A stretch of 64,000 nt of DNA from positions 1-64,000 of IMG/VR virus record IMGVR_UViG_3300042197_004553. The stretch is one strand, 5' to 3'. This document shows positions 11,071-33,574 of the stretch, in pieces; the first letter of the stretch is position 1, and each line of letters starts with the position of its first letter. The notes beneath the pieces are model-generated. The model made no database searches and was not told where the DNA came from. It saw nothing but the letters and a program-made list of their open reading frames with translations. Both the position numbers and the translations under genes were made by a program. The DNA comes from a virus.

Positions 11071-11141
11071 AGCCCCCAGAAGGAGTCAAACCCTCATCCG
11101 CTGATTACAAATCAGCCGCATTATCATTATGCTATGGGGGC
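11071..11141 (-). tRNA. trnT: tRNA-Thr(UGU), CCA not encoded
   Basis: Cloverleaf: GCCCCCA/TGGGGGC acceptor, GCAT/ATGC D stem, GCTGA-TTTGTAA-TCAGC anticodon arm, GAGGG-TTTGACT-CCTTC T arm. Confidence 0.9.
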
Positions 11142-11156
11142 AATTATTAACGGCTA

Positions 11157-12617
11157 TTAGACCCGTGCCGGGGCGGCGCGCTTCCAAAGCGGATGCGCAA
11201 CGGCATCCGATTGCCGCAAAACGCACTTCTCTTCAATCTTTGTTCCGAGAATCGGCAACGTCTTCTTTGTCTTGACGTTCTTTGCCGCCTCGCGGAAATC
11301 AGCGGCGTACTGCTCTAACAATTCTATATCAACAGCCACGTTATTGCGAAGGCACTGGCTGACGTACACTTTGATGCCGTTCAGCGCCTTTTCAATCTCT
11401 GTGATACTCAGATAAAGACCGCGCGTGTTGATTTGCGTTATGGCGTTAGCCTTGTCGTTCGGACCAAGGTAGCGGCTGTCCAGCAATTCCTTTATCGCGG
11501 TGACGAGATTAGGAATCGCGGCCACCAACACGATAGACACGGTAGAAACGTCTGCGTACTCGTAGGCAGCGGCCGCCGCCGGGGGCGTTTCAACAGGCGT
11601 TTCAACCGCGGCGGCTTTTCCAGCACGCAGTTCCGCGATCTCCTGTTCCATGTGCGCCATCTTAGCCAATACAGCGGCCAACTGCGACGAATCGAGGTTA
11701 GACGGGCTGGGCGGCGGTTCAGGTTGCCGTTTGTGGTCCTTCAACATTGGACTGCGCTTCTGTGTGGTCGTGGGTCGTTCGTCTTTGAAGTCGCCGTCGA
11801 CAGCGACGTCTAATCCAAGTGCGGTCAATCTAATGCCGTGGGCTTTCATCTTGGTTTTACTGTACGGGTTCCGCCGTTCTGAAAAATTTTTAATAAGGCC
11901 GTGCTGCTTCAAAAAGTCGCGGCACCGCGTGTAGTTGTGCCAACCGAAATTGAGTTTTTGCGCGCTAATTGGCGTTTTGTCGCCGTCAGGGGTGTCGAAA
12001 TGAAACGCGCACATCGCGCCCAGCAGATCGGCGGGCGTGCCGGTGGTGCTGCCCCACGTTTCACTGTGATTTCTGACGGTAGCAATCAGTCGCCGCACGT
12101 TGTCTTTATTGTTCGCCGCTGGCGTGGTGTTTTGTTCTGGCATGCGGGGGAATTCCTCTTGGGTAATGGCCGCAACGGTCTCGACAAGCACGGCCGGCAC
12201 GGTAGAAATTTCTTTTTGTTTCGGCGTGATCAGGCCGAATTCAGTCAATAACGCCGCAAGCATGTTGTCGCTCATGGCGGAATGTTTTGCGAGATTTTCT
12301 TCGTCTGTCAAATATTCAATTGCCGGCCGTGTCAGTCCGAACGCGCTGCGCTTGTCTACCGCTTTCGGGCGCGCAAGGCGATCATCGGACCAATCGTCGA
12401 TGACCTCAAACAGTACGCGTTTGGCTTTAAGCGCGCGAAGCGCCGTAACAACAAATGCGTATGCGTTCTTTTTTTCCTTCTCTTTGCGGCGGTGCAGCGC
12501 TTTACAGACTTGGTTTGTAATTTCTTGCGCGTGCAATGTGTTGTCGTTTCCGCGGGCCATGTCTTCGACAAAAACGCGCAGCACAGCGAAAAGGATTTTT
12601 TGTGTTTCTTTAGTCAT
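11157..12617 (-). CDS. Hypothetical protein (486 aa; possible winged-helix segments)
   Basis: Long ORF with GAGGAG SD. Confidence 0.7.
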   Translation of the reverse strand: MTKETQKILFAVLRVFVEDMARGNDNTLHAQEITNQVCKALHRRKEKEKKNAYAFVVTALRALKAKRVLFEVIDDWSDDRLARPKAVDKRSAFGLTRPAIEYLTDEENLAKHSAMSDNMLAALLTEFGLITPKQKEISTVPAVLVETVAAITQEEFPRMPEQNTTPAANNKDNVRRLIATVRNHSETWGSTTGTPADLLGAMCAFHFDTPDGDKTPISAQKLNFGWHNYTRCRDFLKQHGLIKNFSERRNPYSKTKMKAHGIRLTALGLDVAVDGDFKDERPTTTQKRSPMLKDHKRQPEPPPSPSNLDSSQLAAVLAKMAHMEQEIAELRAGKAAAVETPVETPPAAAAAYEYADVSTVSIVLVAAIPNLVTAIKELLDSRYLGPNDKANAITQINTRGLYLSITEIEKALNGIKVYVSQCLRNNVAVDIELLEQYAADFREAAKNVKTKKTLPILGTKIEEKCVLRQSDAVAHPLWKRAAPARV

Positions 12618-12852
12618 TCTTTGGCTCCTCGCGTGTTTGCTTCATATATCGAATGTGTTCGACTACCCTGTCGAAACAATTTTCGCACATCAATGTGGTG
12701 TGACTTTCGCCGTCTTTGCTGCTGCAATAACCCCATGTTGCGCTGAGTTCGGCGTACTCAAAATCGTTTAACTGTGTTTTACAACTCGTGCCGCAGATAT
12801 CGCAGAGAACGTCGGTCAGCGCTGTTGTAGGGATTATTTCGTATTTTTTCAT
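12610..12852 (-). CDS. Small Zn-ribbon protein
   Basis: CDICG...A.WGY.S..DGE.....MCENCF. Confidence 0.7.
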   Translation of the reverse strand: MKKYEIIPTTALTDVLCDICGTSCKTQLNDFEYAELSATWGYCSSKDGESHTTLMCENCFDRVVEHIRYMKQTREEPKND

Positions 12853-13316
12853 GCTACGGCTTCCTCAATCTGTACAGGCCAGCAATAGGGAAGATAGATG
12901 GGATCGTCCCAGCCGAACTGGGAATAGTGCCTCAAGTCTTTGCGCAACAGGCTGCTGCGGTGCGACGCGTGTACGTCTTCGCGGCCGAACCACGCTGGGT
13001 ATCGGTTTGCGCCAATTGTCGGGCGAAGGCGGTTATAGGCCGCCACGAACTCAGGTTCAAGGTTGTCCTGAAAGCCCCGGCCACGCCATTCCCGACACAT
13101 GACGATGCTGTAAACCAGCAGCGCAACCTCGTGGCCGGTCCACATGAGGACCGCGGGGTGGTGGCGCCAGCCCCGTTTGCCGGGCACATGCGCGCCGACG
13201 CTCACGCCAAGACACAGCAAAATCTGCTTGCACTCGACGCGTTGTTTTCCCAACCGCTTGTTATCAAGGCACTTTGCCGAACCCTTAAAACTTGGGAGTG
13301 GCAAAAAGGTTTGCAT
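12849..13316 (-). CDS. Pyrimidine-dimer DNA glycosylase / endonuclease V family (MSMEG_6728-like)
   Basis: MQTFLP...SAKCLDNKRLGKQRVECKQIL, GWRHHPAVLMW, EW..RG, HASHRSSLLRKD. Confidence 0.88.
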   Translation of the reverse strand: MQTFLPLPSFKGSAKCLDNKRLGKQRVECKQILLCLGVSVGAHVPGKRGWRHHPAVLMWTGHEVALLVYSIVMCREWRGRGFQDNLEPEFVAAYNRLRPTIGANRYPAWFGREDVHASHRSSLLRKDLRHYSQFGWDDPIYLPYCWPVQIEEAVA

Positions 13317-13678
13317 TATTCGTCGTCGAAATCCTCGTCGTCATCAAAGTCTTCTTCATAACTCGGGTCGTCGTCGTCCCAGCCGTCTTCGTCATCATCA
13401 TTTTCGTTTTCGTCGTCATCCCAGCCGTCCTCGTCGTCTTCGTCTTCGTCTTCGTCTTCGTCGTCTTCGGCTTCGTCGTCGTCAACAAACCAGTGGGGTT
13501 TTTGCTCTGGTTCAAAGTCGGAGTCGTCGTCATCGTCGTCATCGTCTTCATCCTCAACAAATTGCCATTCTTCTTCAATGAAGTCGTCGTCAAAGTCATT
13601 GCGGCCCACCAGCATGGGAGCCCATATGACCGCGGCGCCTCTGGCCGGATGATAACAGTACGACTCGTGACGCGACAT
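13316..13678 (-). CDS. Extremely acidic low-complexity protein
   Basis: D/E tract punctuated by W/F; TAATG coupling to the glycosylase; start may be 13615. Confidence 0.7.
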   Translation of the reverse strand: MSRHESYCYHPARGAAVIWAPMLVGRNDFDDDFIEEEWQFVEDEDDDDDDDDSDFEPEQKPHWFVDDDEAEDDEDEDEDEDDEDGWDDDENENDDDEDGWDDDDPSYEEDFDDDEDFDDE

Positions 13679-13680
13679 GG

Positions 13681-16299
13681 CTATCCGATCTCTTTGTGTT
13701 GCGCAATTTTGTGTGCCGACAAAAATTTTTCAAACCACGCTGCGCGCACAACAACGCCGGGTTTGTTGAACTCGATGCGTTCTTCAATGTACACATTGTC
13801 TTGCTGCAACAGGTCGACAACTGCCGACCAGTTGGGTGCTGGACTGTGCACCATATAAAAATAACGCTCGATAGCCCGACGATTCAACCATATTTGGTCT
13901 TTTTTGCGGACAAAGTAGTTTCCCGACTGTTCTCGGCGCCGGTGCTGCGGCAAAATGTCTATTTTCCCGGTCGAAACGGCCGCGCTGATTTCCTGCATTA
14001 TTTCGCTATGCGCGCAACCCGGAGGCCGCAGCAAAGTGTTTGCGTGAGGTAGATTGAACGTTGCGCCGTAGACAGTCCGCAGCCATGTGTGTAGGTCTGT
14101 CAGTACGGCGCCGATGAGGTGCGCGGGTGTGCGGAACATGGTCGTTTTTGTCTGTAGTACGTGCTGGATGTACGCCGGTACAACGTCGCGCAGCAGCGTC
14201 GCATCGAAGTTTGTCGCGGCTGGATGCGCCAAAATCCGTGTCCAGCCATAACTGGTCAGCGAGGCGTTGGCGGCGGATCGGCCGCAAATCACAAGCGCTC
14301 TGTTAAAAAACCGGGGGGCGCAAGCGGCAATAGCGTCGTCGTTAAACAACCCGCGGCAAACGATCGGCCATGTAATTGCGTCGGTGAGTTTGTTGAGCCG
14401 CGCGTACACGCTTGAGTGGCTTTTTGTCGCGGCGAACGACACCGTGGCGCAATACAGCGCGTCGGCAATGCGCGTTAAAACGATTTCGTTGCCGGTATCA
14501 ACGCACACTGCCTCGTAGTCTTTTTGGAGCATCGGCGCGACGAGGTTGGACACCACGGCGGCCGTCAGCCCCCACACGACAGAATTTTCGTGGGCATCGG
14601 TTAGCAGGTTGCGCAGCGGCAGCGTCGCCACCGGCGTAGGTTCGGGGAAATCTTTGGACTGCGGTGTTTTGCGGATATACGCCGCGCGGCGGACGTCGCC
14701 GGTGTTTGTCAGTTCGTATTCCGCAAATCGAAACGTATTTGTGTTCTCGTCCCAGCCGCAGAGCGACGACACGGCCGTTACTTTGGGTGGATGCAGTTGC
14801 ATGGCCAGCATGGCGCTGTTGGCGTTCCACAACCGGCTGAAGATAACCATGATGTCGTGCGGCGCGAGCACCGTGCGGACGTACCCGAACAGGCCCAGTC
14901 GTTCGACAACGCTAGACGCCTCTTCAAATTCGTACTCCTTGCTGCCGACCCGCACCACGCCGCGGTAGACGCTTTTTCCGTTGCTAAATTGCAGTACTTC
15001 GGTGATTTTGGGCTGCACATTGCAAATTTTGCGCCCTGTGTGGGTCCACCAGCCGTGGTCGCGCTCGACAACGACGGCTTCACGCACGCACCGCGTCGGC
15101 GCCGCCCGCGCGAGTTTTATTGACGTCAAAACCCGCTCCCGGAACTCTTGCGAAAACTGGTCCGGGTATTTGTTGAAGAACGTGTGCAGTTTGTCGTGCG
15201 GCACGGTCAGCCGCTTGGCGAAATTTTCTGCGGCTATTTCGGGGGCGCCGACGAGCGCCGGCGCCAGCGCATCCTGCCATGTTTTGGCACCAGCCCGAAT
15301 GGCGGCGATGTCGACCATAGGCGGCTTGTGGCGAATAGCCGCGGTGGACACATAGCCTTTTGCCCGGCAGGCTCGGCTGATGAGTTCTGGCGACAGGGCC
15401 ACACTGTGGAACACGCGGGTGGCCGGCGGCATGCCGCCCAGCACAGCCCCAAAACTTTCGGCTTCGGGGCCGCTGTAACTGGCCATGACAGGCAGCGGCG
15501 TCGAGTGTTTAAGCAGGTGCTGGCACTGCGTCTTCAGCGCCCAGAGCGGACTGTCTGAGATAATTTGCGTGGTTTTCAGCACTGGATGCTCGGGAGCCAG
15601 CGCGGTATTGAGTAAAAAATACCCGGCTTCGGGCAGCCGGTTTCGCGCGTTTGTCAGCGGAATGAACGATTGCCGCGCAGTATTAAACTCGCCGTACTGG
15701 CGGACAAGGAAACCCGAGAGTCGGCCGGGAAGGTCGTAAAACGGAAAAACAATACTGGGTTCGCCGTCTGCGATGCGACGCGGTTTTTGCCGTCCGGCGG
15801 CTTCGTACATTTTGTTAATTTGGTCTTGGTGCGCCACGCCGACCAGCCCGTAGTGCTCGCGGACTTCGTGCCGCAGGCCCAGTTCGCGCAGGCAGCAGGC
15901 GACGACGTCGCTGTTGTGGTTCCAAATTTGCGCCCGGGCGTCTGCCCAGAACGCGTCAGCGGCGTCGTGGCAGCGGATACGGCGTTCGTAATCGCCCAGT
16001 ACGCGGTTGGCGTCGTTTTCGTTAAGCAACCCCCGATCGGCGAATTTCGTAAAAGCTTCCAGCAGGCTTATATTCCAGAAATAGGCCGCAAACGTTATGA
16101 TATCTCCATGGACGGAACAGGCATCGCATGACAGCCACGGGCCGTCGGTCAGGACATCGTCAAATATCCGCAACGCTTTTTGCTGGCATTTCGGACAAAC
16201 CACTGTGGCGGGAAAATCGTGAGTTTCCGGGGCGACACCCACTGCCGACAGGGCCGCTAGAATATTGTGTCGGCGCACTAAACAGACAGGGAATCCCAT
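13681..16299 (-). CDS. Primase-like multidomain protein (N-terminal Zn finger, DnaG-like segment), possibly catalytically degenerate
   Basis: CPKC...CDAC..HGDIITF Zn finger; IVFPFYDLPGRLSGF resembles the DnaG F-P-I..G.V.GF motif; no clear TOPRIM acidic triad or Walker A. Confidence 0.55.
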   Translation of the reverse strand: MGFPVCLVRRHNILAALSAVGVAPETHDFPATVVCPKCQQKALRIFDDVLTDGPWLSCDACSVHGDIITFAAYFWNISLLEAFTKFADRGLLNENDANRVLGDYERRIRCHDAADAFWADARAQIWNHNSDVVACCLRELGLRHEVREHYGLVGVAHQDQINKMYEAAGRQKPRRIADGEPSIVFPFYDLPGRLSGFLVRQYGEFNTARQSFIPLTNARNRLPEAGYFLLNTALAPEHPVLKTTQIISDSPLWALKTQCQHLLKHSTPLPVMASYSGPEAESFGAVLGGMPPATRVFHSVALSPELISRACRAKGYVSTAAIRHKPPMVDIAAIRAGAKTWQDALAPALVGAPEIAAENFAKRLTVPHDKLHTFFNKYPDQFSQEFRERVLTSIKLARAAPTRCVREAVVVERDHGWWTHTGRKICNVQPKITEVLQFSNGKSVYRGVVRVGSKEYEFEEASSVVERLGLFGYVRTVLAPHDIMVIFSRLWNANSAMLAMQLHPPKVTAVSSLCGWDENTNTFRFAEYELTNTGDVRRAAYIRKTPQSKDFPEPTPVATLPLRNLLTDAHENSVVWGLTAAVVSNLVAPMLQKDYEAVCVDTGNEIVLTRIADALYCATVSFAATKSHSSVYARLNKLTDAITWPIVCRGLFNDDAIAACAPRFFNRALVICGRSAANASLTSYGWTRILAHPAATNFDATLLRDVVPAYIQHVLQTKTTMFRTPAHLIGAVLTDLHTWLRTVYGATFNLPHANTLLRPPGCAHSEIMQEISAAVSTGKIDILPQHRRREQSGNYFVRKKDQIWLNRRAIERYFYMVHSPAPNWSAVVDLLQQDNVYIEERIEFNKPGVVVRAAWFEKFLSAHKIAQHKEIG

Positions 16300-17467
16300 G
16301 ACAACACCGTTTGATCACACGCAGGACGTCAGTGGCCGTGAAACCCACCGTTTAATCACGTTGTTTTCTGCGCCCGATTTTGTAAAAGCTGCCTCGCACG
16401 AGCGCACGCACGGTGACGGAACCCTGCCGCGGCACATGTACGCCGATATGTACCATAAACTGTATCCATGTCATTCGGCGCCTGCAACATGGCTATCGGC
16501 GCTCTTCTTTGCCGACAAGCGGGCGGAGTTTGACGCCAAACGGGCTGCCGAAATTCAAGAACGTCTTCACGCCTCGGCCCGCTTTTTCGGTATTTTAGGG
16601 GCCGTGCAGGAGATGGAAGAAAAAACGGCTCAGGCCAGCGCTGCCGATGTAAACAATTTGGCGGACGCCGATTTTGCCATTGTGTGGGAAAGCGCAGCCG
16701 GAAAAGAACGGCACTGGCCACTGCGGAACGCGGTGGAAGTAAAATTTGCAGCCGCCGGATTTGCCCAGTGGCGCGACGAGTTTGTCTTCAGTGACCGGCA
16801 GAAGATTGCCGAGCGCATTCTGGAAAAGGCCGCCCATTACGGCGCCGACATTGGCGAGCAGGAGCATATGCTGGCTCTGACAGCCGGCCAAGGCGTCTGC
16901 GCGGCGAAGGTGGCCGGCGAGATGCTCCGTGCCCGCGCGACGCTGGTGGCCCGAACCAACGAGCCGGCCGCGGTGGAGATGCGCAAGTTAGCCGCGATTG
17001 TGGAGAGCAACCCAGAACAGGCCCGGACGCAAGACGTCCGGATTAAGATTGCGGCCGCCGTAGACGAGTTTGACCGGGCAAATCATCTCAACCGGTTGTA
17101 CGACGCGGGCGGGCTGGAGCGCCCCGAAGAAGTGCTTTTTGCCGTCACGGAAAAGGCTGCCCGCGATTTCATGAGCCAGAACGTGGAAACAACCACAGGA
17201 AATGTGTACGCCTTGGAAGACCTTGAGAAACTGGCCGTCGATGACGTGCGCAGTTGGCTCGGTGACGATTTTGCGGATGCGGTCACGGCGGGCGGCGTGT
17301 ACCTCGATCGGGACAAGTTAGCGGCGATTGTGCCGACATTGGATCGCGGAATGGCGGCGGCCCTCGATCGGCTGATGCAGGAGAGCAAGATGGCGGCCGT
17401 CGTGCAGACGAAAGCGGCCGAGTCGCTGCTGCCGTTAGAAAAACTTTTCGCTCTTGCGGCTGAATAG
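16298..17467 (+). CDS. Hypothetical protein rich in K-x-A motifs (candidate prohead core protein)
   Basis: ORF from ATG 16298; 15 of 18 Lys are in KxA. Confidence 0.7.
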   Translation: MTTPFDHTQDVSGRETHRLITLFSAPDFVKAASHERTHGDGTLPRHMYADMYHKLYPCHSAPATWLSALFFADKRAEFDAKRAAEIQERLHASARFFGILGAVQEMEEKTAQASAADVNNLADADFAIVWESAAGKERHWPLRNAVEVKFAAAGFAQWRDEFVFSDRQKIAERILEKAAHYGADIGEQEHMLALTAGQGVCAAKVAGEMLRARATLVARTNEPAAVEMRKLAAIVESNPEQARTQDVRIKIAAAVDEFDRANHLNRLYDAGGLERPEEVLFAVTEKAARDFMSQNVETTTGNVYALEDLEKLAVDDVRSWLGDDFADAVTAGGVYLDRDKLAAIVPTLDRGMAAALDRLMQESKMAAVVQTKAAESLLPLEKLFALAAE

Positions 17468-17482
17468 TTGATTCGGTATAGT
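17454..17482 (+). promoter_or_regulatory. Sigma70-type promoter for a candidate sRNA
   Basis: TTGCGG (17454-59), 17-nt spacer, TATAGT (17477-82). Confidence 0.6.
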
Positions 17483-17487
17483 CCGCG

Positions 17488-17558
17488 GCTCAAGGATGAT
17501 TTACGGCGAACCAAGGAGCGGCTCGCAGCACCCGGCAGGAGGCCGGGTGTTTTTTTTT
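17488..17558 (+). ncRNA. Candidate CsrA-sequestering sRNA (CsrB/RsmZ-like, ~70 nt)
   Basis: Three GGA motifs in hairpin loops (UCA-AGGA-UGA; CGA.CC-AAGGAGC-GG.UCG; GGC-AGGAG-GCC) between a promoter and a terminator, 277 nt from csrA. Confidence 0.6.
17529..17558 (+). terminator. Intrinsic terminator
   Basis: CACCCGGC-AGGAG-GCCGGGTG followed by T9. Confidence 0.85.
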
Positions 17559-17590
17559 CTTTCCGGTCGCTTTTTTGCGGACGATTTTTG

Positions 17591-17860
17591 TCAAAAAGGT
17601 GACTGAATTTCGTCACGCTTGTTGATCGGTTTTTGCGGCTCGGCGCCAAAGACGCGGGCCAATACGCGCCGCATAAAATTGGGTCCGGGCGTCGAAGGGA
17701 TTGCGGCTGGGTCGATATTTTGCGAGGAGAGGCCGCCAGCGGGGTTTTCCGGGCTTTTTTGGCTCTCCAGGTATTCCATCCAGGCTTCGTATTCCTGCCG
17801 CTCGTAATACGATTCTGTGGGGATATAGGGGTCTTCAGGTAGCCGGTCGTTCCAGCCCAT
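17591..17860 (-). CDS. Hypothetical protein
   Basis: ORF overlapping the csrA 3' end. Confidence 0.6.
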   Translation of the reverse strand: MGWNDRLPEDPYIPTESYYERQEYEAWMEYLESQKSPENPAGGLSSQNIDPAAIPSTPGPNFMRRVLARVFGAEPQKPINKRDEIQSPF

Positions 17861-18038
17861 GGGGTTTTTTCTCTGGTTGTGTTAACAGTTCGCGGCGCAT
17901 GACCGACACGTCTGGGGCTGCAGTGACTCCCAGCCTGACTTTGTCGCCCACGATGTCCACGACTTTAATCGTGATTACGCGGCCGTCAGGAATTGTGATG
18001 ACAATATCTTCGTTTTTCTTTCTCGACAGGACTAACAC
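17835..18038 (-). CDS. csrA: Carbon storage regulator CsrA/RsmA family translational regulator
   Basis: GTG start; MLVLSRKKNEDIVI...ITIKVVDIVGDKVRLGVTAAPDVSVMRREL matches the CsrA signature including the RNA-binding Arg. Confidence 0.93.
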   Translation of the reverse strand: MLVLSRKKNEDIVITIPDGRVITIKVVDIVGDKVRLGVTAAPDVSVMRRELLTQPEKKPHGLERPAT

Positions 18039-18048
18039 AGGTGGCCTT

Positions 18049-18717
18049 TCAGCCGGCAGCGGTGTCGAGCATTTTTGCGATTTGTTCCGCAGAGCCGTTT
18101 TTGAGGTTGAGCGCCCGTAATTGGGCCGCCAGTAGTTTGGTTTGGAGCCGGATAGATGTTTCGATGTCCTGCCGTTTGCCCTCTTCCAGATCATAGACAG
18201 CATTGAACATCTCGGGATCATCGGAAAAGTCTTGGATGGACGGGGAGACCCGGGCTTGCCGCAGGGCGATCCGCAGGATATCGGGCGGATTCACTAGGCC
18301 CTCAGAATCCAATACGGCGCCGATATAGGCCCGTATTTCATCGCTGAAGGGCTCTGGATCGTCGTCCTCGGGCGGATAGATCAAAAGGGCCTCTGTGATA
18401 CCCCAAGCCACCTCTTCGGCGTCAGCGGGGTCCCACATGTCCGGACGGTAGGTATCGCCGGACAGGATATTGCACAGGTTCACGAAATCCGGCAGGCTCC
18501 TGTAGAACCGGTCGGTCGTGAGTATCTGAATCGCCGCCATGAGTTTGTCGAGGGACAGTTGGGGCAATTCGACGTCGAACTCCTCTTCAATTTCCAGCGC
18601 GATCGTGGTCGGGTCCCATGTCAGGGCTTCCGTCCCAAACCGGTCCAGAAACATGGTCAGGAGAACCGACCCGAACGTTTCCCGGCTCTTCCACGCTTCC
18701 TGCACGATGTTTGGCAT
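18049..18717 (-). CDS. Hypothetical phage protein
   Basis: 222-aa ORF with globular composition. Confidence 0.75.
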   Translation of the reverse strand: MPNIVQEAWKSRETFGSVLLTMFLDRFGTEALTWDPTTIALEIEEEFDVELPQLSLDKLMAAIQILTTDRFYRSLPDFVNLCNILSGDTYRPDMWDPADAEEVAWGITEALLIYPPEDDDPEPFSDEIRAYIGAVLDSEGLVNPPDILRIALRQARVSPSIQDFSDDPEMFNAVYDLEEGKRQDIETSIRLQTKLLAAQLRALNLKNGSAEQIAKMLDTAAG

Positions 18718-19135
18718 GTAATCCGCTCCGTTTCTCGATATGCCGTCTGCCCCGTCGGTATAACTCGTTTAAATTGTACCCGATTGTCTCCATGGCCGGA
18801 TGGGGGAGTTCGGTGACCCATTCGCCCTGCTGGAGGTCGAGAAAGCCGGTCATACGGGTCCACGTGCAGAACTGGCTGTCGACGAAAACGAACTGATTAA
18901 GTTGACTAAACAGTTGGGGGCCGGCGGATTCCAGCGTCGGCCAGAATTCCGCCAATAAGACGTTCCGCTGTTCGGGCTTTAAAAACGGCAGGCGCTCAAC
19001 AAGGTCCGCGGTGAGCAGAAATAGGACCGCGGCGTCGGACAGCAGGATGGTTTCATCAGGGACCGGCTGGCGCAGAATACCTGAGAAAAGCGCGCGGATT
19101 TGCAACTTGCTCAACCGTATAAGCCCTGTTACCAT
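18587..19135 (-). CDS. Hypothetical protein
   Basis: ORF; 3' end overlaps the next gene by 131 nt; start uncertain. Confidence 0.55.
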   Translation of the reverse strand: MVTGLIRLSKLQIRALFSGILRQPVPDETILLSDAAVLFLLTADLVERLPFLKPEQRNVLLAEFWPTLESAGPQLFSQLNQFVFVDSQFCTWTRMTGFLDLQQGEWVTELPHPAMETIGYNLNELYRRGRRHIEKRSGLHAKHRAGSVEEPGNVRVGSPDHVSGPVWDGSPDMGPDHDRAGN

Positions 19136-19181
19136 GCCCAGAGTCAGGTGTGGTACGGCTTTTTCTTTAGCGGAGGATTCA

Positions 19182-19457
19182 ATGGTTTCCATTCTCGATG
19201 ACCTTTCCAAGGTGACGACCGGCCGGGCTGAGTTCGTGGTGGCGTCTGAGAGTATCGAAGATTTGCTGGCGGCGTCTACGGCGAGTCTCGTGTTGCAGAA
19301 GGCCGCCGAACTGGGCTTTAATCGTCCGGGCGTCTCAACGTCGGGTGGGCCGTATCCGGTCGACGCTGACGGCAAGACCGACGATGAACTGCTCTTGGGC
19401 CGTCGTGGGCCGGTGACGGGCTACCGGCGCGACTTCATCGTGCTGGCGTCGATATAG
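19182..19457 (+). CDS. Hypothetical protein
   Basis: GGAGG SD before ATG 19182. Confidence 0.65.
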   Translation: MVSILDDLSKVTTGRAEFVVASESIEDLLAASTASLVLQKAAELGFNRPGVSTSGGPYPVDADGKTDDELLLGRRGPVTGYRRDFIVLASI

Positions 19458-19927
19458 CCCTCGTCCGGGCCGAATGTTTCAAGGTGAGCCAAGCGCGCGG
19501 CATAAAACTCCGCCACGTGCTTGGCCACTTTTTTGAACCGGGCAAGCATCTGCGGCACGACCTGCTCGTTGAAGGCTTTTACGATCACTTTGCGCAGGTC
19601 GGCAATGGCGTCGGGGGTATATTTCGCCGCGGCACACTTTTCAGCCGCGGCCCGAACAGCCGGGTCTTGGTCCAGCACGACTTGGACGAATTTGGCGTTC
19701 ACGAAATTGATGTCAAAACCGTACTGGTCGCGCAGGGCGTTCTCTTCTTCTATCTGGAAGATCGACGCGCCGGGCCAAACGTCGGTTTTGGTAGACGTTT
19801 CTGCCGGATAGCGCAATTTGTCGAGCGACCAGCCAAAGGCCGCGGCGTCGTCGTTGGGCTCCGGCATGACATACGGCGGTTTCTTGCCCTCGGGCTTCTT
19901 GTCGAGTGTTCGTTTGAGTTTGGCCAT
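19421..19927 (-). CDS. Hypothetical protein
   Basis: ORF from ATG 19927. Confidence 0.65.
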   Translation of the reverse strand: MAKLKRTLDKKPEGKKPPYVMPEPNDDAAAFGWSLDKLRYPAETSTKTDVWPGASIFQIEEENALRDQYGFDINFVNAKFVQVVLDQDPAVRAAAEKCAAAKYTPDAIADLRKVIVKAFNEQVVPQMLARFKKVAKHVAEFYAARLAHLETFGPDEGYIDASTMKSRR

Positions 19928-19970
19928 AAATGCTTGATATCTAAGGAAAAGGGGAAAGGACAAGGCCACC

Positions 19971-20052
19971 CGTTCACGGCCACCCAGCCGGAACGACAGC
20001 ACAAGCACCGGATAGGTGCAGGTGTGTGTTCCGGCTGAGTAGCCGTTGAACG
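19971..20052 (-). other. Long intergenic RNA hairpin
   Basis: 19-bp stem ACGGCUACUCAGCCGGAAC/GUUCCGGCUGGGUGGCCGU with two G.U pairs that form only on the minus strand. Confidence 0.65.
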
Positions 20053-20059
20053 TTTTATG

Positions 20060-20434
20060 TTACGCCAGACTCGCGCTGGTCGCGAGGTGGGCGTCCCGCA
20101 GGGCGATTTGCTCCGCGAAGGGGTTGCTGGGGCGCAGCGCCGAGAGGAGAGACTCGGTGGTCTCCTCGTCGCCCCGCTCCAGCGCCGCCATGTACTCGTG
20201 GAACTGTATCGCCACGAGCCCCCGCCAATTGTCGGCGACTCTGGAGAGAATCTCTTTCTTCCAGTAGTTCACCCGGGCCCACTTGTCCTTGGGGTGCGCG
20301 GCCATCGCGTCTGCTTCTACTTCGCTGATCACGTAGTCGAAAAACTTGATGGCGTGCTCGGCCACGGGGACCGACACGGTGTCACGGTGAATCCGGCCAA
20401 CAATCGCGGACTTGGTGTTCTCGACAGTCGACAT
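20060..20434 (-). CDS. Hypothetical protein
   Basis: GAGG SD; preceded by a conserved promoter-like motif. Confidence 0.7.
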   Translation of the reverse strand: MSTVENTKSAIVGRIHRDTVSVPVAEHAIKFFDYVISEVEADAMAAHPKDKWARVNYWKKEILSRVADNWRGLVAIQFHEYMAALERGDEETTESLLSALRPSNPFAEQIALRDAHLATSASLA

Positions 20435-20490
20435 GGCAAACCTCGTAGGGTTAAAGGACGCACCGCCAACACCATGTTGGGGTACACCTT

Positions 20491-20518
20491 ATATGCCGCG
20501 TTTTTGTCGAGAATTTAG
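20491..20518 (-). promoter_or_regulatory. Putative phage promoter CTAAATT-N15-GCATAT (copy 1)
   Basis: Same boxes and spacing as at 60415-60442. Confidence 0.55.
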
Positions 20519-20522
20519 GCGG

Positions 20523-20822
20523 CTAAAAAGTCGCCGAGAGTGTCTGCCCGCTGCTGTTGGTGTAGACGATCTTGATCTGCTGCGTATTGAGCAGTTGCTT
20601 AATTTCTGTCTGCTTTTCACCGCTGAGTGCGACAAGGCAGGCTTTGATCTTGGCCAACTCTTCGCGCTGTTTGGCGACGCGCTTGCGCGCGCAAGACCCG
20701 CAGCCTCCCGCGCCGCCGGCGAAGAGATTCTTTTTGTTGGCAAAACAGGGGATCGCCTGCGCGTCGGGATTACCGAGCAATGACAGAATCGTACTGTCTT
20801 CCAAAACTACTTGCTGCAGCAT
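20523..20822 (-). CDS. Small Cys-containing protein
   Basis: GGAGG SD; GCGSC motif. Confidence 0.7.
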   Translation of the reverse strand: MLQQVVLEDSTILSLLGNPDAQAIPCFANKKNLFAGGAGGCGSCARKRVAKQREELAKIKACLVALSGEKQTEIKQLLNTQQIKIVYTNSSGQTLSATF

Positions 20823-20842
20823 TTGTGCCTCCGTGCTGTTAA

Positions 20843-21667
20843 TTATGCGGGGCCTGTCGGGCCTGTTGGGCCGGTGGGACCTGTCGGTCCGGTGGGGCCT
20901 GTCGGGCCTGTCGGGGGCGTACCGATCCAGACATCGCCACCAGGGAGCAACTCTGCCGTGATGTCCAGCGTGTTCTTCAGAATCTGTACGTCTTCCAGCA
21001 CGCTGTTAATAAATTCCCGCGTCTCCTCGCGTGAGCGCAGTAAAACGTCAACGTAGTTCATCCGGAACCACGCCGGCCGGGAGTTTTCGATTGGCGCGTC
21101 TTCGGGATACTCTTCCAGGTCTACCGACGAGCACACGTGATCAAACGCCGCGACTTGCTCCATGCTGCCCGGTTTTAACGGCAGCATCTGGTAGGCAAAA
21201 ACTTTAGTCGGCATCTGGTTTGCCGCGGTCGCCTCAATTCTGACGCGAATACCGTCGATGTCGTTGTAGTACTGCCGGCTGACGGCCCACTCGATATGAA
21301 TGTTTCTTGGTGTGGCCTGTAATTTTGGCGCCACAATGATGTCGCGGGAGAAAAAGGTGATCGACAGCGGCTCGGCAAACCACTCTGCGCCTGCGGGGTA
21401 AAGCAGCCGGGCGCGCACGAGCAATGACCCCGGCGCGGTAGCTTTTAAATATCCGATAGCGGCGCCTGTTGCATCCGTGAGGTCAGGCTGCGCGAGAATT
21501 ACGTCGGGCCGGTCATCGACGACAAATTCAACACGCCGGCCGGTGAGCGGGGCGTTGGTCGTGTCCCGCAAACGTACTTTGATGGCGGCGGTGTCTTTTC
21601 CGTTCGCGACGACAAACGGACGGTTGCCGTGCAGCAGCCGAGAATGGGTGGGGCTAAAGTCAGCCAT
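20843..21667 (-). CDS. Ig-like (invasin/Big-1-like) domain protein with collagen-like tail
   Basis: VANGKDTAAIKVRLRD..N.PL.G..V.F...TD..G.A...L.AT.PG; C-terminal (GPT)n. Confidence 0.7.
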   Translation of the reverse strand: MADFSPTHSRLLHGNRPFVVANGKDTAAIKVRLRDTTNAPLTGRRVEFVVDDRPDVILAQPDLTDATGAAIGYLKATAPGSLLVRARLLYPAGAEWFAEPLSITFFSRDIIVAPKLQATPRNIHIEWAVSRQYYNDIDGIRVRIEATAANQMPTKVFAYQMLPLKPGSMEQVAAFDHVCSSVDLEEYPEDAPIENSRPAWFRMNYVDVLLRSREETREFINSVLEDVQILKNTLDITAELLPGGDVWIGTPPTGPTGPTGPTGPTGPTGPTGPA

Positions 21668-21671
21668 GGAA

Positions 21672-22064
21672 TTAACCTGTTTCGTTCAAGGTAGTATCGA
21701 CAAAAATATCGTACGGCTGATTATAGACGATTGTTACCGCCAGATGGTCGACGGCCTCATCCGCACCTTTTTTGGCGACCGCGCGAATAAATTTGCGAAT
21801 CAGCGTGTGGTCGGTTCGCGTTGCGCCGGCGAGCATGTCGAGCAATTTCGTGATACAGGGTCGCATCCATTCTGAAGAAACTCGGCATGAACAACCTTTT
21901 TTTTTAGTTTCTGTTTTATAGTGTTCGCGGCAATGTTCGAAATCAGTTTGGAGCCCAACCAGTTCTGGTACGTGCGTAAAAAAGTCCGGGGCGAAGACAT
22001 GTCGGGCCAGCGTGTCGGCGCCCATGGAAAACCGCCCGGTAATTGATCTAGGCTGTCGCCGCAT
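21672..22064 (-). CDS. Hypothetical protein
   Basis: ORF within the structural operon; GCSC motif. Confidence 0.6.
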   Translation of the reverse strand: MRRQPRSITGRFSMGADTLARHVFAPDFFTHVPELVGLQTDFEHCREHYKTETKKKGCSCRVSSEWMRPCITKLLDMLAGATRTDHTLIRKFIRAVAKKGADEAVDHLAVTIVYNQPYDIFVDTTLNETG

Positions 22065-22077
22065 ACATCATCCCGAA

Positions 22078-25500
<3,423 letters not shown>

Positions 25501-31395: not shown

Positions 31396-33552
31396 TTATT
31401 CCGTAGCGCTTTGTACGATACCCGCAATCCGCAACACACCCACGTCGTTATCGTATGCGTCGCCCGGCGTGAGTTGCCGCTCGATGGTGACAAGCACTGT
31501 ATCGCCGGCTTGTACGGCAAACTCTGCGCTGTCACACTCGGCAACCGTGTCGATTGGCAACTGTTTGGCGGATGACGAAAAATCTAAACTGGTATCAACG
31601 GTCGGGAGTTGCAGGGCTCCCGAGAAAGGCCGCGGCAGGCGGCGATACGACATGTACAACTCGGGCAGTTGCGAGTTGGTCAGTGGCGTACCGAAGCGAC
31701 CGAACAAACGCACGCGGATTTTCATTTTGAGATTCTGATCGACGTTGGCCTCCGGCACGTTTAGCCGGACGCGCAACAACGAATTCTGCCCGGCCGGAAA
31801 TCCCAGGTACGGGATGTCCATATACAGCCGTTCGACCGTGTCGCTCAGCCGGATGATTTGCGGCGCGAGTTCCCGCTCCACCAGATCGTCGGTGTAGTCC
31901 ACCCGGAGTAACCCCTGATGAATGGGCACGGGGTTTTCTGTGGTGATGCCGAGGGCGGTTTTTTCGGCCGACGTCAGCAGCCGACCGGACACCAGTTTGT
32001 AGGTGCCCGTGCCTGCGGCTGTCGTCGCGACTGGCGTCCCCGCCAGTGTTGTGGCGATTTTAAACGTATTCGCCGTCAGGTCTTTGGCGGCGATAAAATA
32101 CTCCGCATTGGCTGTGAGCCCGGCGGGGAGAACGCTCGCGGCGTCCGGGACGAGGCGGACCTTGGCACCTGGGCCGAACCCGTGCCCTGTGGCGGTAAAC
32201 ACAGTTTCTACGCCGTGGGCGATTGTGACTGCTCGCGGCGTGTTTCGACTGCCGCGGATGGCTAGATACGTCGGCGTCGTGGTGACCACTCCTTCGGCCG
32301 CCCAACCGACGACCAATTGGTGGCGATTGGCGACGCTTTTCACCACCTGCCCGCCAATGCCTTCTTGTTTTGCTGTCTGTAAATCGAGATTAAGTTTCAA
32401 ATCGCCGGTGGTCGCCGGCAAATCGTCGCAGTTTGTGACGGCAACGGGAGCCGTGATTGTTTCGCCATTGACGATGTCTTCGTCCGGCGCCAGACTCGTT
32501 ACGACACTGCGGTTGTTTCCCAACAGCATCCGCAGGAACACGACAGACAGCCGCATGGCTTCTCCGCGCGGGCACTCCGATCCGGGACTAGTCGGGTCGA
32601 CCCACGTTGGCGAGTAAGTCGCCGGCCACGGGACGTCGTTGGCGCAGTCGCTCATCCACCAAATGCCGTTGACGTCGCAGACCACCAATCCCGAGCGCCC
32701 GAGTGGCACCTCTGTGGCGCCGAGGAGGTTTGCGCCTTTGTCCCACAGCACGGATACGGACTGAATCGGGATCGGCGGCCAGACATTGGCCAGTGCCGCG
32801 TGTTTTTGAATGTTGTATCCGAACACCGCGCCAGCCGGTGCTTTCCCGTTAAACACGGCGTGGCTGGCCGGCAGCCAACCCTGCAGTTCCGCGTTGGGAT
32901 TGGTGACGATGCGGCGCGGTTGCGGGTCGGTGGTGAGCGTGTTCGTGCCGGCGGGCTGCGCGACGAGGTCGAAACGATAATGTGTGTGCTCTTCGACATA
33001 GTCGCGGGCTTGCGGCATGACGAGGACGCGCAACTGGTCAGAACAGTTGTCGCGAGAGCCCTGCACGTGACAGACCACGACGGTAACCGGTGGCTTTTGC
33101 TTGGAGAGTTTTCCAGGCTCCACGGCTGACAAGTAATATTTACCCGGCGTCACCGTTTCCCCGATTGATTGTGTTAACTCCGGAAAAGTGACCAGACCCC
33201 GCAGCACAATGTCGGCACGGTCGGCGGCCTTTTTCTTGTAGCACATGCCGACGCAGTCCGAGGACGGCTGGACGCTAAAAATCTGCGTGGTGTCGTCTAG
33301 CGTGACGGCGACCATCGCTGGTTCGTAGCGGCTGGCGGCCCAGTTCCAGTACACCGGCTGCCCCGGTTGCACGTCCGGAGACACGGTGGCGTCAACTTCG
33401 AAAAGCGCGCGGCCCAGTTCGGCCGCGTCCAGCCGATCTTTTAAGTACTCGGTACGCTCTTCAAGCGTGCGGTCGGGGCGGCCGACGACGCCAGCCTGCA
33501 CAGGTTCGCCTGTGGCGACGTGTTTGATGTTGTACGGCCAGTTTCCGGACAT
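31396..33552 (-). CDS. Tail/baseplate structural protein (718 aa)
   Basis: N-terminal V.AGVVGRP...LEERT.YLK resembles fibre attachment domains; position in the tail cluster. Confidence 0.65.
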   Translation of the reverse strand: MSGNWPYNIKHVATGEPVQAGVVGRPDRTLEERTEYLKDRLDAAELGRALFEVDATVSPDVQPGQPVYWNWAASRYEPAMVAVTLDDTTQIFSVQPSSDCVGMCYKKKAADRADIVLRGLVTFPELTQSIGETVTPGKYYLSAVEPGKLSKQKPPVTVVVCHVQGSRDNCSDQLRVLVMPQARDYVEEHTHYRFDLVAQPAGTNTLTTDPQPRRIVTNPNAELQGWLPASHAVFNGKAPAGAVFGYNIQKHAALANVWPPIPIQSVSVLWDKGANLLGATEVPLGRSGLVVCDVNGIWWMSDCANDVPWPATYSPTWVDPTSPGSECPRGEAMRLSVVFLRMLLGNNRSVVTSLAPDEDIVNGETITAPVAVTNCDDLPATTGDLKLNLDLQTAKQEGIGGQVVKSVANRHQLVVGWAAEGVVTTTPTYLAIRGSRNTPRAVTIAHGVETVFTATGHGFGPGAKVRLVPDAASVLPAGLTANAEYFIAAKDLTANTFKIATTLAGTPVATTAAGTGTYKLVSGRLLTSAEKTALGITTENPVPIHQGLLRVDYTDDLVERELAPQIIRLSDTVERLYMDIPYLGFPAGQNSLLRVRLNVPEANVDQNLKMKIRVRLFGRFGTPLTNSQLPELYMSYRRLPRPFSGALQLPTVDTSLDFSSSAKQLPIDTVAECDSAEFAVQAGDTVLVTIERQLTPGDAYDNDVGVLRIAGIVQSATE

Positions 33553-33574
33553 CCTTGTCCTCCGGCGTTAATGA

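Follow-up and report, generated by a model that had tools for sequence, protein, structure and literature searches.

The stretch of DNA analyzed here (the window, 64,000 nucleotides (nt)) is the first 64 kb of the 79-kb IMG/VR virus record IMGVR_UViG_3300042197_004553. Between two convergent genes it contains a small plus-strand RNA unit (17483–17558) that is conserved in three other phages and lies 277 nt from a gene for the translational repressor CsrA, the distance given in the preliminary description of this DNA. We put the probability that this unit functions as a CsrA-binding decoy at roughly one half, judging from its sequence and that of its homologues. The anatomy of the unit, its homology, its conservation and its distribution among clades are matters of observation, whereas we infer its transcription, its binding to and antagonism of CsrA, and the identity of the target.

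The RNA body in the window, the short form, starts with CGCGGC, continues through two CAAGGA sites and a hairpin, and ends in an intrinsic terminator; it is recognized by covariance model R1 with 70.3 bits and an E-value of 7e-16 (alignment A2). Its three GGA motifs are at the positions described previously (17494, 17515 and 17538), with CAAGGATG at 17491–17498. Site 1 (CAAGGAUG, 17491–17498, GGA at 17494–17496) is in a single-stranded 5′ stretch, and not in a hairpin loop, in both the minimum free energy (MFE) and the ensemble folds. Site 2 (GGA at 17515–17517) occupies the 7-nt loop, AAGGAGC, of a 6-bp hairpin (17506–17526) that is present in the MFE and centroid folds, and site 3 (GGA at 17538–17540) is in the pentaloop, AGGAG, of the terminator (17527–17558). 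The earlier statement that every GGA sits in a hairpin loop therefore holds for the second and third but not for the first, and its caution about the weakness of the first two hairpins was justified. With a 5′ end near 17488, all three GGAs are predicted to be unpaired with probabilities of 0.88–1.0 (0.88–0.95 for site 1 and 0.94–1.0 for site 2); for an RNA beginning at the stop codon of the upstream gene, p400, GGA1 is mostly paired. The terminator, whose stem (17527–17536 with 17542–17551) has 10 pairs, seven of them G-C, and is followed by T9, ranks first in the terminator scan of positions 12000–24000, in agreement with the original assignment. Reading the unit as a small open reading frame (ORF) was considered and rejected because the frame is not conserved and the spacings from Shine-Dalgarno sequence to start codon are unsuitable: a 53-aa frame in one relative (L001) stops after seven codons in another (L009), leaving no conserved ORF through the unit, and a spurious 44-aa frame across it had no matches when searched as a protein.

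A homologous unit occupies the same slot in three IMG/VR phages (L001 = L007, L003 = L008, and L009). In this long form, the 3′ untranslated region (UTR) of p400 and a terminator of its own are followed by TTGACG, a 16-nt spacer, one of the hexamers TATGCT, TAGACT or TACATT, a body of 124 nt and a second terminator. Promoter and terminator were both reported by an unbiased scan, the terminator ranking first or second within 5 kb. The hexamers TTGACG and TAnnnT are conserved in the relatives across a spacer that has diverged, as would be expected if the promoter works. The body includes three invariant CAAGGA motifs, and in L001 and L003 a fourth GGA is present in the terminator pentaloop (AGGAC). 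Where the homologues have them, the GGA of hairpin 3 has a probability of being unpaired of 0.95–1.0 and that of the terminator loop 1.0; the exposure of long-form sites 1 and 2 is variable. The long form also has a conserved GC-rich central hairpin that is unconnected with the GGA sites.

Alignment A2 shows that the window and the long form have in common the –10 box, the CGCGGC 5′ end, two CAAGGA motifs 21 nt apart, the hairpin that presents site 2, and the terminator, the stem of which is identical in the window and the relatives. The window lacks an internal piece of 48 nt, comprising the first GGA and the GC-rich hairpin, as well as the –35 element and the whole p400 3′ UTR with its terminator, so that no terminator is found between p400 and the RNA unit. 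The promoter proposed earlier for the unit, TTGCGG-N17-TATAGT, is present as letters. Its TATAGT (17477–17482) is the positional homologue of the –10 hexamers of the relatives, but the –35-like TTGCGG (17454–17459) is not homologous to their TTGACG, matches TTGACA at only three of six positions, and is located within the last codons of p400 (L-A-A). Thus the description of a discrete transcription unit applies, by sequence, to L001, L003 and L009, but in the window, where the –35 and the upstream terminator have been lost, an independent promoter is doubtful. Because of these losses, the window's unit probably doubles as the p400 3′ UTR. In the sister group of the carriers, L010 and L027 (the latter equal to L028 across the locus) keep the p400 3′-UTR motif and terminator and have no RNA gene; since the terminator is retained there, the loss of terminator and –35 in the window is a derived deletion.

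Three further features of this region were observed. The p400 3′-UTR motif, GTCCCnnnnGGGTCrTCCCTwG, is present in the 25–40 nt that follow the stop codon in L007, L009, L010 and L027, where it is followed by a terminator with a stem that differs between phages; it is absent from the window, and the TCCCTTG within it comes close to being complementary to CAAGGA. In L001 (5249–5283 and 5417–5439) and L003, the terminators of p400 and of the small RNA (sRNA) share the stem CACCCGGC / GCCGGGTG and differ in their loops, which suggests duplication or gene conversion; the two stems differ in L009. Finally, the –10 box of the unit is part of a GTATA[CG]T sequence that occurs at five sites in the window, on both strands and always between genes, as compared with about 10 expected from composition. 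The plus-strand copy at 17476 (GTATAGT) holds the –10, and the four minus-strand copies (61593, 56888, 54773 and 7825) precede blocks of structural genes on that strand, mostly right after terminators and with no clear –35. GTATA[CG]T may be a phage-specific promoter element.

Between the window and the long form, the two C(C)AAGGA motifs match at all 13 positions, as compared with eight of 27 positions in the linkers; the GGAs, whose conservation in relatives had been named in advance as a point on which the idea could fail, are thus retained as invariant CAAGGA in all three relatives that carry the unit, with linkers about 30% identical to those of the window. Among the three long forms, the bodies are 88–94% identical at the nt level, and the corresponding values for the surroundings are 85–87% for p222 (the 222-aa gene upstream of csrA), 78–80% for p400, 79–80% for csrA, 51–64% for p89 (the small gene next to csrA) and about 61% for adjacent non-coding DNA. 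The stem of hairpin 3 is kept with one compensatory change from A-U to G-C. The proposed examination of promoter and covariation in the relatives was successful for the σ70-like promoter, conserved across its diverged spacer, but yielded only this one compensatory pair.

Promoter, terminator and strong conservation indicate a functional RNA gene without identifying its binding partner, and such a gene could act in another way: its CAAGGA sequences might be seeds that pair with UCCUUG in target RNAs, it might be bound by a different protein, for instance p89, or it might serve as an antisense RNA or insulator between the convergent p400 and csrA-p89 transcripts. The operon csrA-p89 lacks an obvious terminator, and its transcripts would run on antisense to the unit; the conserved central hairpin of the long form is independent of the GGA sites. 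That hairpin is, however, dispensable in the window, and the short and long forms share, besides the 5′ CGCGGC, only the CAAGGA sites, one hairpin that presents such a site, and the terminator. Adjacency to csrA and the display of A(N)GGA in loops fit CsrA specifically, and we regard a conserved RNA with a different mode of action as unlikely.

The evidence against chance is modest for the window when taken alone. The number of bare GGA motifs in the unit is not unusual relative to dinucleotide shuffles (p = 0.28), and the fold has a z-score of only –1.7 to –1.8. By the same shuffling procedure, AAGGA is enriched, with two copies in 71 nt in the window (p = 0.003) and stronger values in L001 (p = 1e-4) and L009 (p = 1.5e-4). 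On the plus strand of the window, two AAGGA fall within 60 nt at only two places, one of them the unit. Apart from these units, 845 kb of related loci contain no non-coding cluster of at least three AAGGA, all others being in or overlapping coding sequence. These figures bear on the simplest alternative, that the window's unit does no more than supply p400 with a 3′ UTR and terminator, its GGAs having arisen by chance. The lack of a terminator between p400 and the unit, the weak –35, the unremarkable GGA count and the z-score of –1.8 all favor this view, but the relatives have a terminator for p400 itself with the unit as a distinct gene behind it, the motifs have been retained, conservation of the body exceeds that of the coding genes, and the AAGGA enrichment has a p value of 0.003. 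We give this explanation little credence.

CsrA dimers bind pairs of GGA sites. If the unit is a decoy, its RNA would expose A(N)GGA sites, three in the window and four in the relatives, and their spacing of 21–25 nt would be suitable for bridging by a single CsrA dimer, so each molecule might sequester one or two dimers. The decoy would lower the concentration of free CsrA encoded 277 nt away, and possibly that of host CsrA too, and would relieve the repression of targets, a likely one being the gene for a 718-aa tail protein with an ACAAGGAUGU hairpin on its start codon. In the phages with the long form, the decoy would be an independent sRNA of 124 nt with a host-type, σ70-like promoter and a terminator of its own. 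In the window, deletion of the p400 terminator and the –35 element would mean that the p400 mRNA, ending at the shared terminator, carries the sites in its 3′ UTR at the least, perhaps with additional starts from the retained TATAGT –10.

Several observations weigh against a decoy function. AAGGAG also resembles a Shine-Dalgarno sequence, three or four sites are few as compared with RsmZ or CsrB, and the stems associated with sites 1 and 2 are weak. In the window, TTGCGG-N17-TATAGT is below the threshold of the promoter scan and was not reported by it. L009 has lost the GGA of the terminator loop, which reads AUGAU, and the covariation consists of a single pair among four sequences. No Rfam family (CsrB, CsrC, RsmY, PrrB_RsmZ or rsmX) matches at its gathering threshold; at permissive E-values only rsmX appears, with 11.9–12.2 bits as compared with the 56 required. 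Only four carriers are known, all from a single clade, and about 30 other relatives that have csrA contain neither the unit nor any AAGGA cluster.

The candidate target is a minus-strand sequence, GCCGGAGGACAAGGAUGUCCGG, at 33545–33566, which includes the start codon of the tail gene. It can form a hairpin with the elements GGAC, AAGGAU and GUCC in which the AUG is within the loop and 3′ arm, and a Shine-Dalgarno sequence, GGAGGA, is positioned just upstream. The ACAAGGAUGU of this hairpin is the core of the CsrA consensus obtained by in vitro selection (SELEX). The site is invariant, letter for letter, in three phages (L076, L077 and L078) whose tail proteins have 62–72% amino acid identity, while the 10–12 nt immediately upstream have diverged; two of the three are without the RNA. 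The 8-mer CAAGGAUG is common to site 1 of the unit and to the tail-gene site (33557). This near-consensus site is a strong candidate for a CsrA operator, and it supports the view that the phage CsrA controls late genes of the phage and that the RNA imitates a site of this type. A more extensive proposal is that CsrA, an operator at the start of the tail gene present throughout the family, and a recently acquired decoy restricted to one clade constitute a self-contained Csr module in which the decoy frees late-gene translation; we advance this tentatively and consider it doubtful as a whole.

The distribution of the unit is narrow. Model R1 finds exactly one copy in each of four records and none in 43 other loci, in a relative that is 71% complete, or in a 205-kb relative that is 100% complete; in the latter genome, no three AAGGA are located within 110 nt of each other anywhere. 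Analogous, non-homologous GGA clusters were sought in other clades and none was found. On a tree of p222 and p400, the four carriers group together in a single clade (support 95/91), the window being sister to the three long forms. The RNA is thus a single and fairly recent gain. In contrast, csrA is family-wide, so the RNA unit is not a general part of the family's CsrA system, and CsrA in the roughly 30 csrA-bearing relatives that lack the unit works without it. Contigs from two other studies (X5 and X6, about 87% identical with no gaps) and one identical contig (X4) cover positions 17471–17700, and therefore the short form exists elsewhere. Pattern scans of viral contigs with CAAGGA-N-CCAAGGA gave 15 chance matches in coding regions, those with the 5′ core and the terminator gave only the three known relatives, and scans of GTDB genomes gave seven unrelated matches in terminators or coding sequence.

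This distribution is also relevant to the possibility that the RNA is a decoy for the CsrA or RsmA of the host, acting to reprogram host physiology, and that its linkage with the phage csrA is incidental. The promoter in the relatives is of the host σ70 type, which implies early or host-dependent expression, and most phages with this csrA have no RNA, indicating that the two are separable. Nevertheless, the RNA has stayed beside csrA in all four carriers. The closest cultured phages have only 28–30% identity in the large terminase, TerL, and many hosts outside the Gammaproteobacteria antagonize CsrA through FliW and not through RNA (PMC7366521). We judge a decoy directed solely at the host to be improbable.

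The protein encoded at 17835–18038 (minus strand, 67 aa, GTG start) is a true CsrA as judged by its sequence, and the preliminary identification of the gene is upheld. It matches Pfam PF02599 well above the gathering threshold (E = 1.1e-16; 60.9 bits as compared with a cutoff of 27; residues 1–54 on profile positions 1–50 of 53) and the PHROG family of CsrA-like regulators (E = 8e-10). It aligns end to end with the chains of Bacillus subtilis CsrA, RsmE and Escherichia coli CsrA (1t3o, 2jpp and 1y00), so that its M-L-V-L-S-R-K and V-M-R-R-E-L segments fall on the corresponding positions of all three, and it is most similar to the B. subtilis-type protein. The predicted RNA-binding residues Leu2, Leu4 and Arg6 of strand 1 and Arg48, the equivalent of Arg44, are intact, and Met1, Leu2, Val3, Arg6, Arg48 and Glu50 are invariant across 23 phage homologues.

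The start of p89, a conserved ORF of 89 aa (17591–17860, minus strand), overlaps the 3′ end of csrA by 26 nt. p89 has no match in Pfam or PHROG and no signature of FliW or another family. Synteny and the overlap with csrA are retained in about 33 related loci (for example L007:4850–5185). The sequence of p89 is marked by MGWND, invariant at the N terminus, by a GLSSQNIDP motif and by a Y..W..Y helix. The csrA frame is open to 96 aa across p89 in L011, L014–L017, L019 and L021. p89 is a candidate partner or antagonist of CsrA that, unlike the RNA unit, is family-wide.

The completeness of the record is estimated as 39%, corresponding to a phage genome of about 200 kb, and TerL has only 28–30% identity to that of any cultured phage. 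DNA sequencing runs that hold the window or parts of it are labeled mostly as freshwater, and also as wastewater, aquaculture and aquatic. The related loci were obtained by protein-anchored scans of IMG/VR, six through p400 and 42 through p222; a metagenome scan with p400 gave only one distant locus, and about 30 closer relatives, with up to 91% identity, are visible as proteins in Logan/ENA in a search for p400 homologues. The RNA unit is located within the 123 nt that separate p400 from p89. p400 (16298–17467 in the ORF list, plus strand; about 390 aa when counted from the ATG at which homologues start) converges on the minus-strand csrA-p89 pair, and its stop codon abuts the unit. It has 363 homologues with lengths of 389–394 aa and no family match in Pfam or PHROG. 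About 35 loci retain the arrangement p222-csrA-p89 with p400 convergent to it. Between p400 and csrA-p89, some other clades have a tRNA-Met(CAT) gene (L002:5217–5291, L004:5222–5295, L018:5111–5184 and L040:5313–5386) and others an extra ORF, and this position is a hotspot of small-gene turnover. Other RNA features of the window are a group I intron on the minus strand at 1825–2607 (Rfam RF00028, 72.6 bits, full-length model) and a tRNA-Thr(TGT) gene on the same strand at 11071–11141.

The known CsrA sponges are RNAs encoded on chromosomes, and nearly all of them come from Gammaproteobacteria. If it binds CsrA, the RNA described here would be the first phage-borne CsrA sponge and, with the adjacent gene, the first viral pair of CsrA and sponge. 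It would offer a natural case in which a sponge was gained and then remodeled from a stand-alone sRNA to a 3′ UTR, and it would indicate that viruses can run a protein-titration circuit of their own on translation, with a repressor, an operator on a structural gene, and a decoy. At about 70 nt and with three sites, the short form would be a very small natural sponge for mechanistic work, and the four variants, which include the long form, the short form and the loss of a loop GGA, are a natural mutational series. Even if binding to CsrA fails, the unit represents a new conserved family of phage sRNAs. The csrA genes of phages and plasmids have been cataloged.

The closest functional counterparts of the unit are RsmX, RsmY and RsmZ and CsrB and CsrC (Rfam clan CL00106; RF00018 and RF00084). 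Like these sponges, it is a short non-coding unit that has, in the relatives, a promoter and an intrinsic terminator, and a protein of the CsrA family is present; several A(N)GGA motifs are displayed in loops and single-stranded linkers, one of them in the terminator loop, with a spacing appropriate for bridging by a dimer. It differs in having no homology to them in sequence or structure, only three or four sites, and no GacA/UvrY box (none resembling TGTAAGN6CTTACA within three mismatches near the unit), the latter because the –35 of the relatives directly follows the terminator of another gene. It also differs in its location, next to the csrA gene of the phage that encodes it, and the Rsm and Csr RNAs belong to Gammaproteobacteria whereas the phage host may not. 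Low-valency CsrA-binding sRNAs and decoys in 3′ UTRs or mRNAs, such as E. coli McaS, can titrate or deliver CsrA with few GGA sites. The unit is comparable in being a small RNA with few such sites and, as far as the window is concerned, in that its sites are probably also carried at an mRNA 3′ end; the known examples are chromosomal, linked to Hfq, and also act by base pairing. The FliW-CsrA system of the Bacillus type is similar in that the phage CsrA is most like the B. subtilis protein and is translationally coupled to a small partner gene, p89, but p89 has no signature of FliW and its partnership with CsrA is only a candidate one.

The preliminary description knew of csrA genes in phages but not of a cognate sponge RNA, and full-text searches of the literature likewise found no described phage-encoded CsrA sponge or cognate decoy. 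Alleles of csrA on mobile elements are documented in 30 phages, on plasmids and on integrative and conjugative elements (ICEs), and include the rsmM of the Pseudomonas phage phi297 type and Legionella CsrT (PMC7366521). The CsrA copies of Pseudomonas phages are about 43% identical to the phage CsrA of the window. These systems and the present one are alike in that the element carries its own CsrA paralogue. They differ in that no cognate decoy RNA encoded by those elements was found described, whereas in the phage examined here a candidate for such an RNA adjoins csrA.

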